A program made the position numbers and the translations under genes. Of a stretch of 5,318 nt of DNA, positions 109 through 5,238 are shown in pieces (within the stretch, counting starts at the first letter, position 1; the number at the start of each line of letters is the position of its first letter). The stretch is from a virus. Lineage: Duplodnaviria; Heunggongvirae; Uroviricota; Caudoviricetes. The notes below the pieces were generated by a model. It was not told where the DNA came from. It searched no databases and saw nothing but the letters and a program-made list of their open reading frames with translations. Location: IMG/VR virus record IMGVR_UViG_2706794492_000015; one strand, written 5' to 3'.

Positions 109-203
109 AGAAATGAAAAAAGGCCACGCAGTTGCGCAGCCTGATAAACCCTGGTTAAAATCCACACGATAACAACACAACAATATCAGTATCTCATGCT
201 ATT

Positions 204-228
204 GCCCGAACCCATTCGGGCATTTTTT
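204..228 (+). terminator. Rho-independent terminator, plus strand
   Basis: Stem GCCCGAA (204..210) / TTCGGGC (215..221) with loop CCCA, followed by A then TTTTTT (223..228). On the minus strand it lacks a U-tract. Confidence 0.5.
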
Positions 229-233
229 ACCCA

Positions 234-262
234 TAAAAAAATGCCCCTCCGGAGAGGGGCAT
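234..262 (-). terminator. Rho-independent terminator, minus strand, ending the methyltransferase transcription unit
   Basis: Perfect 9-bp stem ATGCCCCTC / GAGGGGCAT (241..262) with a 4-nt loop; on the minus strand the hairpin is followed by seven T (234..240). Confidence 0.6.
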
Positions 263-510
263 GTTTGCATGCACATTCTTTTTCTTGCATGGTGCCGGGT
301 GCCTCCCGGTGAATTCAGTATCAGCACCTGAACCCGCACAGAAAGGATAGAGTAGAAACACCTGCGCTGATATGCCCCTCCGCTCAGGGGGATTCACCAT
401 GCCAGTTTCTTTTAACAAACTCCCCGCAAACCAGACAACTGTCAACCGTCTGAATTGTGAGACATTTAAAATTTTCGGGGCGTACCTGATACCCGGTTAA
501 TTCTGCAATA

Positions 511-1917: not shown

Positions 1918-2040
1918 GTCTTTTTCCCTTTTTCGGTTAACGTGACACACCAATAACTCTTGTCAAAAAAGCCAGCAAGCTGAAAGACCGGTATTCACCG
2001 CCACCAGCGCGTTTACTGTACTGACGCGATTTCAGTCATA

Positions 2041-2061
2041 AAAAACCCGCCAGGCGGCGGG
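2041..2061 (-). terminator. tR'-like rho-independent terminator about 45-65 nt downstream of the pR'-like start
   Basis: Minus-strand reading CCCGCC-GCCT-GGCGGG followed by TTTTT; 6-bp GC stem at 2046..2051 / 2056..2061, T-run at 2041..2045. Confidence 0.6.
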
Positions 2062-2098
2062 GTGTAAAAAATCTTCTAACGTCAGGCATAAAACGCCC

Positions 2099-2138
2099 AT
2101 CGTTAGGGCAAATTTACCACAGATTCGGGAAAAATCAA
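2099..2138 (-). promoter_or_regulatory. Lambda pR'-like late promoter with sigma70-dependent pause element (Q-utilisation region)
   Basis: Minus-strand reading TTGATT (2138..2133), 16-nt spacer, TGG-TAAATT (extended -10; hexamer 2116..2111), then TGCCCT-AACGATGGG (AACGAT at 2104..2099). This parallels lambda pR' TAAATTTGACTCAACGATGGG as I remember it. It lies directly after the Q stop codon. Confidence 0.6.
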
Positions 2139-2143
2139 CAAAG

Positions 2144-2965
2144 CTATCTGGTCACCTTTTTCAGTTGTTGTTCTGCCCATGCTTCTTCAATATCAAACTG
2201 CACCACCAGCGTATCGTAAAAACGTTTAACTGTTTTTTTCCATGTATCAAGAGATATGGCATCGGTTACATTACATATGGCATTAAATGCCTCCGTTGAT
2301 GGTAGTCTTTCACAGCCACGACCACCACAACGCTGGCAGTCTCTGATAACAGGCATACCACGTTTTACCGACTCTTCACGATGAATGGCGACACCACGCC
2401 CACGGCAATCCTTACAGGCGGTGGAAACCTCACCCTTTCCGCCACACTCCGGACAGGCAACTTTTACCACCTCCCTGACTTTTTTCCATTCCTCCCAGTA
2501 AGACGGATACACGCCTTTTGTGCACTTTGCCCACACTGGCGGCTTACCATCCGGATACTGGATCTTGTTTGTAAAAACCTCGCTTTCAATAAATTTTTTT
2601 CCGTGACAGCAGGGGCACTGTTTTTTGCTCGCCGCGCTACGGGCATAATCTTCAAACGCATACGAAGCCATAATACGCATCACTGCCGGTTTTATTTCTG
2701 CCGGGAGTTTTCTTAACGCCGCCACGCGATCACACCGACTGAGTGCATATTCTGTCAGCAATTCTGTTGCCCGCTCTCTGTCATTCATACTAATGCCCAT
2801 TTTCCCAAGGAACGCAGAAAACCCCATCTCAGCCCGATTCTGTGTCATGCCCTGCGCGGCCATCACATCAGTGATACTCAGCGCATCTTTTGACGTTGAG
2901 GCCGATGCATCGGTCAGGCCAGGGGATTTTGGGGAGTAGTATTTCGGTAAATCTTCCAGTTTCAT
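2144..2965 (-). CDS. Q: Late antitermination protein Q, lambda-Q family, 273 aa with an expanded Cys-rich domain
   Basis: N-terminus MKLEDLPKYYSPKSPGLTD...ITDVMAAQGM and C-terminus TWKKTVKRFYDTLVVQ...KKVTR parallel lambda Q (MRLESVAKFHSPKSP...TDVMAAMGM...TWSRTVKPLYDALVVQ...NAVTR, from memory). Four CxxCxGxx-type motifs at C117, C171, C184 and C210. ATG at 2965 overlaps the rusA stop as ATGA. Position immediately upstream of the pR'-like promoter. Confidence 0.85.
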   Translation of the reverse strand: MKLEDLPKYYSPKSPGLTDASASTSKDALSITDVMAAQGMTQNRAEMGFSAFLGKMGISMNDRERATELLTEYALSRCDRVAALRKLPAEIKPAVMRIMASYAFEDYARSAASKKQCPCCHGKKFIESEVFTNKIQYPDGKPPVWAKCTKGVYPSYWEEWKKVREVVKVACPECGGKGEVSTACKDCRGRGVAIHREESVKRGMPVIRDCQRCGGRGCERLPSTEAFNAICNVTDAISLDTWKKTVKRFYDTLVVQFDIEEAWAEQQLKKVTR

Positions 2966-3348: not shown

Positions 3349-3639
3349 TTACCCAAGCACGCCAGTTGCAAAGGCGTGATCAAGAAAACGAAAAATTAAA
3401 TCAACCTGAGAACCATGCTTTTCTTCGAACGCCAGCGGATCCGCATGAAGCTCGTTGTGATGCTCCCGACACAGCGGTAGCGTGAAAATATCGTGAGATT
3501 TTGTCCCCATTCCGCCCTGACCATGACCAATCAGGTGATGGGGATCGTCGGCTGGCTTACCACAACACGCACACGGCTGTGTCTTTACCCAGCGTGTGTA
3601 TTTCTCATTTACCCAGCGGCGACGTTTAGGTCGTTTCAT
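3349..3639 (-). CDS. Small Cys/His-rich protein with an HNH-like (beta-beta-alpha-metal) motif, 96 aa; putative phage nuclease or zinc-binding protein
   Basis: Preferred start is the ATG at 3639, which overlaps the upstream stop as ATGA (3639..3636). The ORF-track start at 3684 is a GTG inside the upstream gene. Motifs CACCG, DDPHH and LCREHHNELH are spaced like an HNH zinc-finger nuclease. Confidence 0.6.
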   Translation of the reverse strand: MKRPKRRRWVNEKYTRWVKTQPCACCGKPADDPHHLIGHGQGGMGTKSHDIFTLPLCREHHNELHADPLAFEEKHGSQVDLIFRFLDHAFATGVLG

Positions 3640-4187
3640 GAACGATTCAGGAGACTCCGGATCAAATGATTGCAGGCCGCCCACCAGGATAATTCGGCCA
3701 GCGATAACTCCCTCTCCTGCGTACCGCTTATTGCGTGACGGATGACATCAATCATCCAGGCAACCAGATTCTGCTGAGCAAGTTGATCGAGTGATTCTGA
3801 TGTCTGGTCGCGCAGCTGGTTGTCGCAGTGCCAGCACAACACCATCGCGCCGGTACCATAACGGTGAATGACTGTTTCGCTGTGATGATAATCGCCGTGT
3901 GGCCACTGGCAGGATTTCACGTGACGTAATAACCAGTCAGACAGTGCACCTGCACCACCTGCTGCACGAATAACCCGCTCATCGCTGAAAAATGGCAGTA
4001 ATGTTTTATCCTCTGCCAGCGGCTGGCGAACGGCAGGAACGACTCCGGACGGCAGACCGCGCATGTTTTTCGGTTCCGGCTCCACCAATATTCTGCCGTT
4101 ATGGAATACTGACATTGATTCACGGCCTGGCTTAACGATAACCAGACCGAGTTCCGGTACCAGAACAGGTCGAAGTAATACCCGCAC
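3636..4187 (-). CDS. Hypothetical nin-region protein, 183 aa, with Cys/His cluster (CQWPHGDYHH...CWHCDN)
   Basis: GTG start at 4187 preceded by GGAGG, with the upstream TAA stop between the ribosome-binding site and the start. First ATG is at 4115 (alternative start giving 159 aa). Same strand and tight packing with neighbours. No family recognised with certainty. Confidence 0.6.
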   Translation of the reverse strand: MRVLLRPVLVPELGLVIVKPGRESMSVFHNGRILVEPEPKNMRGLPSGVVPAVRQPLAEDKTLLPFFSDERVIRAAGGAGALSDWLLRHVKSCQWPHGDYHHSETVIHRYGTGAMVLCWHCDNQLRDQTSESLDQLAQQNLVAWMIDVIRHAISGTQERELSLAELSWWAACNHLIRSLLNRS

Positions 4188-4978: not shown

Positions 4979-5134
4979 TTACTCCTCAGGTTCGTAAGCT
5001 GTGAAGACAGCGACCTCCGTCTGGCCGGTTCGGATTCGTACCTCGCAGAGGTCTTTCCTCGTTACCAGTGCCGTCACTATGACGGTTAAACAGATGACGA
5101 TCAGGGCGATTAGCATCGCCTTTTGCTGCTTCAT
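4979..5134 (-). CDS. hokD: Hok/Gef-family type I toxin (small membrane-damaging peptide), 51 aa
   Basis: Translation MKQQKAMLIALIVICLTVIVTALVTRKDLCEVRIRTGQTEVAVFTAYEPEE matches my memory of E. coli HokD/RelF and is a typical Hok protein (hydrophobic N-terminal helix, TRKDLCE...R.G..EVAA/VF). ATG at 5134 preceded by AAGGAG with a 9-nt spacer. The 70-aa ORF-track version adds an in-frame N-terminal extension from an ATG at 5191. Confidence 0.85.
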   Translation of the reverse strand: MKQQKAMLIALIVICLTVIVTALVTRKDLCEVRIRTGQTEVAVFTAYEPEE

Positions 5135-5238
5135 AGCCTGCTTCTCCTTGCCTTTCGGCACGTAAGAGGCTAACCTACGTGTGTAGAGCATAGATATGGC
5201 CTCAGATTAATGTTAAGCGTCTTGCCGGACGCGTAATG

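Follow-up and report, generated by a model that had tools for sequence, protein, structure and literature searches.

A lambda-family Q antiterminator with a conserved insertion, probably a second Cys4 zinc ribbon, at the body–arm hinge

The Q gene of a 5,318-nucleotide stretch of caudoviral DNA (hereafter the window; IMG/VR record IMGVR_UViG_2706794492_000015) encodes, by profile and sequence match, a full member of the lambda-Q family that carries a single block of additional residues with two extra pairs of near-invariant cysteines. We consider it likely that this protein is the late-gene Q of a lambdoid Escherichia coli O157:H7 prophage, which acts as lambda Q does and bears a second, tandem Cys4 zinc ribbon. 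Most members of the family have four motifs, which makes this form an ordinary one, while the two-motif protein of lambda appears, from comparison of the homologues, to be a reduced derivative. Coordinates of the gene, its parts and the neighbouring elements are given in Table 1.

Table 1 Features of the window, with positions counted from its first letter
Feature	Position	Strand	Basis and remarks
AgvB anti-GcvB sRNA	167-228	+	Rfam 96.5 bits, above gathering score
STnc100	231-431	-	Rfam 150 bits, above gathering score
tR'-like intrinsic terminator, 6-bp GC stem and T-run	2035..2061	-	Terminator scan; conserved in related loci
pR'-like late promoter region	2096..2138	-	Sequence; alignment with lambda and phi80 pR'
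Sigma-dependent pause element AACGATGGG	2104-2096	-	
-10 TAAATT, then 6-nt gap	2116-2111	-	
16-nt spacer, presumed Q-binding element	2132-2117	-	
-35 TTGATT	2138-2133	-	
Q antiterminator gene	2144..2965	-	ORF list; 273 aa and stop; long (phi80/QuuQ-type) form, lambda-Q family
Q residues 219-273, body second half (helix-turn-helix in lambda Q)	2147..2311	-	Alignment, AF2; helix-turn-helix from PMC9388147
Q residues 182-218, canonical zinc-ribbon arm, corresponding to lambda Q 116-152	2312..2422	-	Alignment, AF2
Motif 4 CQRCGGRG (Cys210, Cys213)	2315..2338	-	Motif script; aligned with lambda Cys144/Cys147
Motif 3 CKDCRGRG (Cys184, Cys187)	2393..2416	-	Motif script; aligned with lambda Cys118/Cys121
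Q residues 114-181, insertion; predicted extra Cys4 zinc ribbon and long beta-hairpin	2423..2626	-	Gap relative to lambda Q, AF2, dN/dS
Motif 2 CPECGGKG (Cys171, Cys174)	2432..2455	-	Motif script
Motif 1 CPCCHGKK (Cys117, Cys120)	2594..2617	-	Motif script
Q residues 61-113, helical body, first half	2627..2785	-	
Q residues 1-60, homologous to lambda nozzle-forming segment	2786..2965	-	phmmer alignment, Foldseek; role in lambda from PMC9388147
sok antitoxin RNA, adjoining hokD ORF at ~4979..5134	5129-5303	-	Rfam 111.7 bits, above gathering score

Family membership and position of the insertion

The window protein (RefSeq 'antitermination protein', WP_000762904.1) matches the Pfam Antiterm profile (PF03589) with 167.4 bits against a cut-off of 26.7 (E 7.6e-50), and the best match of a phmmer search against PDB sequences was lambda Q (7UBM, E 1.1e-39), all of which was covered by the alignment. 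The best Foldseek match of the predicted structure was chain Q of the engaged complex 7UBN. Among the features by which we recognise the lambda-Q family, the helical body fold with its helix-turn-helix was found and so, as judged by alignment, was the Cys4 arm, in which Cys184, Cys187, Cys210 and Cys213 fall on the lambda ligands with an identical 26-residue spacing. The profiles for the Q21 (PF06530) and Q82 (PF06323) antiterminators were not listed for this protein in a Pfam scan with E up to 1; these two share the biological role and genome position of lambda Q but have unrelated folds (PMC9388147).

The Pfam DnaJ_CXXCXGXG profile (PF00684) matched residues 171–217 below its cut-off (28.1 versus 32.7 bits, E 2.6e-6), an NCBIfam scan returned just far-sub-threshold DnaJ and Anti-TRAP matches (23 bits for the DnaJ equivalog against a cut-off of 377), and the J domain, G/F region and C-terminal substrate domains were absent from the protein in both the Pfam and NCBIfam scans. 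We rejected a true DnaJ domain on the Pfam cut-off together with this domain context. Most homologues have a precomputed Pfam match to PF27659.1, and precomputed PF00684 matches are already present for these Q homologues in the protein database; the name 'chaperone protein DnaJ', given by one source to a single homologue (P0034), we take to be a naming artefact caused by the motifs.

In lambda Q, structural work has described an N-terminus that is disordered at first and, together with NusA, folds anew into a nozzle at the RNA-exit channel, a body of four helices with a helix-turn-helix (residues 61–113 and 153–207) and a zinc-ribbon arm (residues 114–152) that swings by ~75 degrees to reach DNA positions 11–13 (PMC9388147). 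The tip of the arm contacts sigma region 4, the beta' subunit of RNA polymerase is contacted at its zinc-binding domain by residues 110–112, 117 and 122–126, and the single zinc is held by Cys118, Cys121, Cys144 and Cys147 (PMC9388147). HMMER aligned the window protein to lambda Q in two blocks, with residues 1–113 matching lambda 1–113 (E 4e-23) and residues 182–273 matching lambda 116–207, so that the extra length (66–68 residues) is a single insertion, residues 114–181, which contains motifs 1 and 2. As this insertion falls between lambda residues 110–112 and 117, it lies exactly at the body–arm hinge, between two patches that contact the polymerase.

These results agree with most of a preliminary description of this DNA, which had recorded a Q frame of 273 residues with four CxxCxGxx motifs, set it against a lambda Q of 207 residues with two, and placed the extra length in the central region. 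The ORF list and a motif script returned the same frame, on the minus strand, and the same four cysteine pairs, and lambda Q translated from J02459 has 207 residues and only two motifs (CRDCHGTG and CGRCKGVG). The description had considered two bound zinc ions or an inserted domain possible, and this proposal is supported by a discrete 68-residue insertion with invariant cysteine pairs, a predicted fold and a signature of purifying selection. Window positions 2312–2617, on which the description had focused, correspond to Q residues 117–218. The protein contains 13 cysteines (78, 117, 119, 120, 148, 171, 174, 184, 187, 210, 213, 218 and 231); those listed as additional to the motifs (148, 218 and 231) are present, and Cys78 and Cys119 had been omitted. 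All four motifs conform to CxxCxG, with motif 1 ending in K rather than G. Chance was rejected as their origin, as 100,000 shuffles of the protein gave at least four CxxC motifs 117 times and four CxxCxG motifs never, with a maximum of three CxxCxG motifs seen twice. A mis-called reading frame or a frameshift fusing two genes was likewise rejected, as thousands of genomes, and isolated phages too, have the identical 273-residue frame in their annotation.

The structure of the window protein was predicted with AlphaFold2 (AF2), which does not model zinc, from an alignment of 44 long-form homologues of 41–71% identity, and gave a mean pLDDT of 85.1. The insert (pLDDT 74–88) is confidently modelled as a long beta-hairpin flanked by two extra knuckles: strand 114–116, knuckle 117–124 and strand 125–136 are followed by two short helices and then by strand 159–170, knuckle 171–178 and strand 179–181, such that 12-residue strands stand immediately after motif 1 and immediately before motif 2. 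In the canonical arm, the model places a strand (192–194), a helix (196–202) and a second strand (207–209), in agreement with the B1-H3-B2 description of lambda Q. The preliminary description had asked for such a prediction and had named two outcomes that would count against it, an equal motif count in lambda Q or extra cysteines that are dispensable and unstructured; lambda Q has only two motifs, and the extra cysteines are conserved and lie in an insert that is predicted to be folded. When the arm was modelled in isolation, its sole structural neighbours were the cysteine-rich domain of DnaJ/Hsp40 and Anti-TRAP (PDB 1EXK and 2BX9).

Distribution, conservation and pairing of the cysteines

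Prophages at the ynfA–speG (Qin) site in E. coli O157:H7 and related strains match the window with 100% identity, and of 5426 complete E. coli genomes, 2497 (46%) carry its Q gene at ≥80% nucleotide identity. Isolated phages, for example Evi and mEp460_ev081, carry the gene at 89–91% nucleotide identity. Protein matches were obtained in 249 phage records; 131 of these are matched over the full length in one piece, while records of lambda- and P22-type phages give a two-piece match with 78% coverage. A search of 1.84 billion cluster representatives returned 36 intact near-full-length proteins, of which ~31 contain motifs 1 and 2 and five are short. All four motifs are also present in phi80 Q (269 aa) and in QuuQ/YdfT of E. 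coli K-12 (250 aa). The unusualness implied by the preliminary description, which had set the protein against lambda Q, therefore falls away, the four-motif form being the commonest and occurring in both of these proteins. Four further entries (P0205, P0207, P0212 and P0217) have a Q C-terminal module, which begins shortly ahead of motif 2, joined to N-termini of other origin, one of them DUF968-like; these are probably recombinant prophage remnants.

The eight cysteines of the four motifs (C117, C120, C171, C174, C184, C187, C210 and C213) are invariant in all 44 aligned long forms. Across a wider set of 218 long forms, each motif cysteine is kept in 214–216 (Cys117 and Cys120 in 214, Cys171 in 216 and Cys174 in 215), and the few sequences without one of them are frameshifted or chimeric. 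Across the whole family, short forms included, motifs 3 and 4 do not vary. The remaining cysteines are not conserved: Cys148 lies in a variable loop and is usually replaced by a gap or Gly, and Cys78, Cys119 and Cys231 are specific to a subgroup. Conservation of the insert extends beyond cysteine, with K134 and G176 invariant in the 44 long forms and G122, F125, V130, F131, P154 and E165 invariant or nearly so. The length of the linker that separates motifs 1 and 2 varies between ~5 and 58 residues with the cysteines fixed. Estimates of dN/dS (Nei–Gojobori, seven E. coli and phage alleles) were 0.055 in the insert, compared with 0.079 in the N-terminus, 0.046 in the canonical arm and 0.072 in the C-terminus, and the insert is under purifying selection as strong as that on the rest of Q. 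We therefore read the module as a conserved part of Q under selection rather than as a disordered or dispensable stretch.

Motifs 1 and 2 are jointly present or jointly absent, while motifs 3 and 4 are always present. In a neighbour-joining tree, which was inferred from the flanking regions only, has no bootstrap values and describes mosaic phage genes, short forms occupy at least four separate places among the long forms, with the short P0168 at a distance of only 0.13 from the long P0132. The joint gain or loss of motifs 1 and 2, the scattered short forms and the position of the lambda zinc on motifs 3 and 4 favour two autonomous tandem Cys4 zinc ribbons, formed by pairs 1+2 and 3+4, over a nested arrangement of the DnaJ type, and this is our best reading.

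A DnaJ-type cysteine-rich domain, in which motifs 1 and 4 and motifs 2 and 3 would each bind one zinc within a V-shaped finger, is the strongest competing arrangement, and we regard it as unlikely. It would account for the four CxxCxGxG-like repeats and for the PF00684 match to residues 171–217, and K-12 YdfT scores above the PF00684 cut-off (35.4 versus 32.7 bits), although the window protein falls under it. In a sequence alignment, motifs 2 and 3 also resemble the single Anti-TRAP site through their 13-residue spacing, the first cysteines of that site being ~14 residues apart. The segment from motif 3 to motif 4, however, is homologous to, and has the same 26-residue spacing as, the lambda ribbon that holds one zinc alone. 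Moreover, motifs 1 and 2 have come or gone together on at least four occasions, and the lambda-type proteins without them work, whereas with nested pairing the loss of this unit would leave both remaining sites with half of their ligands.

We give still less weight to the insert being a tolerated decoration, a folded or partly folded loop without a role in antitermination, whose extra cysteines just prevent interference. Lambda, P22 and other short-form Q proteins do work without it, and the hairpin between motifs 1 and 2 is highly variable in length and sequence. This explanation is opposed by the purifying selection on the insert, equal to that on the rest of Q, by its several invariant or nearly invariant non-cysteine residues and by the retention of the long form in most of the intact cluster representatives, as well as by a hairpin tip (KPPxWxK...PSxWExW) that is common to the window protein and phi80 Q, which are only 40% identical overall. 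Metal-free extra cysteines, engaged in disulfides or in a redox switch, are hardly credible, as nothing beyond the presence of 13 cysteines speaks for them, while Q is a cytoplasmic protein, its CxxCxGxG knuckle is the same as that of the proven zinc ligands of lambda Q, and invariance is confined to exactly four cysteine pairs.

The homologues also suggest a direction of change. What short forms lack is the segment between the first cysteine of motif 1 and the first cysteine of motif 3, as after an in-register deletion, and the two-ribbon form appears to be ancestral, with short lambda-type Q proteins having arisen several times by deletion. A recent tandem duplication of the lambda ribbon was considered and rejected, as residues 150–178 and 189–216 are only weakly similar (E 0.001 in a single comparison) and partly through the motifs themselves; an old duplication of the ribbon may be hinted at by this similarity. 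Two homologues show other rearrangements, an in-register deletion between motifs 3 and 4 in P0226 and a partial internal duplication spanning motifs 1 and 2 in P0001 (337 aa), and the repeated motif-coding DNA seems prone to such in-register events.

Late promoter and proposed action of the long form

A simple promoter scan did not call the pR' site, whose hexamers score 8/12, and the site was found through alignment with lambda. The -10 hexamer TAAATT and the pause element AACGATGGG are identical to those of lambda and are separated by a gap of 6 nt in both, while the spacer between -35 and -10 has 16 nt compared with 17 in lambda and differs in sequence. The terminator follows the pause element at ~40–70 nt. 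Seven related loci were compared between -35 and -10, where six do not differ and Ec120899 departs by one spacer base; the promoter region is nearly invariant across loci whose Q genes are ~10% different. With promoter, pause element and terminator as in lambda, every cis-acting element expected for a lambda-type Q accompanies the window Q, and promoter geometry showed no change relative to lambda that could be tied to the extra module.

In the lambda-like action that we consider likely, the helix-turn-helix body and the zinc-ribbon arm would bind the Q-binding element between -35 and -10, just downstream of the gene, and Q would engage RNA polymerase paused at the sigma-dependent element AACGAT. 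[quoted passage not shown] Residues 114–181 would contribute a CxxC knuckle at either end (Cys117/120 and Cys171/174) of the long beta-hairpin, and this module would form a second Cys4 ribbon beside Cys184/187/210/213, giving two zinc ions per monomer. Inserted at the beta' contact patches and the hinge of the arm, the module would be placed to modify the contact with polymerase or with upstream DNA, or else the geometry of the arm.

We tentatively suggest, as one possibility, that the extra ribbon and its aromatic and basic hairpin touch a further partner, which may be polymerase, sigma region 4, NusA or the DNA lying upstream of the Q-binding element, and that most lambda-family Q proteins need this contact whereas lambda has dispensed with it. 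If so, the loading complex known from lambda would represent a pared-down exception, and promoter or host specificity would have a second determinant in the variable hairpin, also in those Q proteins by which some phages control Shiga toxin 2.

Comparison with known systems places the window protein as follows. Lambda Q (207 aa; PDB 4MO1 and 7UBJ–7UBN) shares with it the PF03589 match, ~40% identity over the 207 lambda residues, the nozzle-forming N-terminus, the helical body, the Cys4 arm of motifs 3 and 4, the C-terminal helix and the downstream layout of promoter, pause element and terminator, but lacks residues 114–181, has two CxxC motifs and one zinc, and has another spacer sequence between -35 and -10. 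Phi80 Q (gp17) is 40% identical to the window protein, with four motifs at equivalent positions and the same hairpin tip motif, and differs in that its motif 3 reads CxCxGxG. QuuQ/YdfT of the K-12 Qin prophage is 44% identical and also has four motifs, with a shorter hairpin; the promoters are not alike in the presumed Q-binding element. The DnaJ/Hsp40 cysteine-rich domain and Anti-TRAP (PF00684 and PF15777) resemble Q in their repeated CxxCxGxG knuckles and short beta-hairpin, whereas Q lacks a J domain or chaperone context, falls under the Pfam cut-off and probably pairs its motifs sequentially rather than in a nested manner.

The four-motif architecture is best described as already known at the level of sequence and annotation, through RefSeq, Pfam and phi80 Q, on which work dates back to 2004 or earlier. 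In 2004, Guo and Roberts reportedly set phi80 Q beside lambda Q in experiments (cited in PMC9388147), and the extra segment would very likely be visible in an alignment in that work and in Vorobiev 2014. A full-text literature search found no description of the second module, though an earlier one may exist. Q proteins are textbook antiterminators that gate toxin production in Shiga-toxin phages, and to our knowledge all structural knowledge of the lambda-Q family comes from the 207-residue lambda protein. Lambda Q is a minority and apparently reduced form, most members having at the hinge, near the polymerase contact, another Cys4 module that is conserved and under selection. This calls for caution when lambda structures are extrapolated to the Q proteins of prophages and Stx phages and offers a clear structural target. 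It does not make the long form a new kind of system.

Gene context and variant copies

In the source genome, the gene order is RusA, Q, pR', methylase, esterase and lysis genes. Phage Stx2_EH1910 encodes a protein 98.9% identical to the window Q, labelled quuQ, in the order Q, methylase, tRNAs and stx2AB. The late promoter would yield a short terminated transcript of roughly 60–70 nt; a regulatory sRNA has been reported for terminated Shiga-toxin pR' transcripts (PMC7547250).

Relative to otherwise 100% identical E. coli records, the window is without 211 bp at position 3665/3666, and this loss splits a DUF968 (ydfU-like) gene, which encodes 349 aa in the reference, into two ORFs on the minus strand (3349..3684 and 3636..4187). 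Position 218 of Q, directly after motif 4, is Tyr in 195 of 218 homologues and corresponds to lambda Tyr152 at the arm–body junction; E. coli alleles have C or Y, and the window protein has Cys (2312–2314). Given this replacement of a near-invariant Tyr and the neighbouring DUF968 deletion, the Q copy of the window prophage may not be fully functional. In one further allele (L009:301-1122, from E. coli O157:H7 strain 3384), Phe replaces Cys187, a ligand of the canonical ribbon, and that copy is probably inactive.
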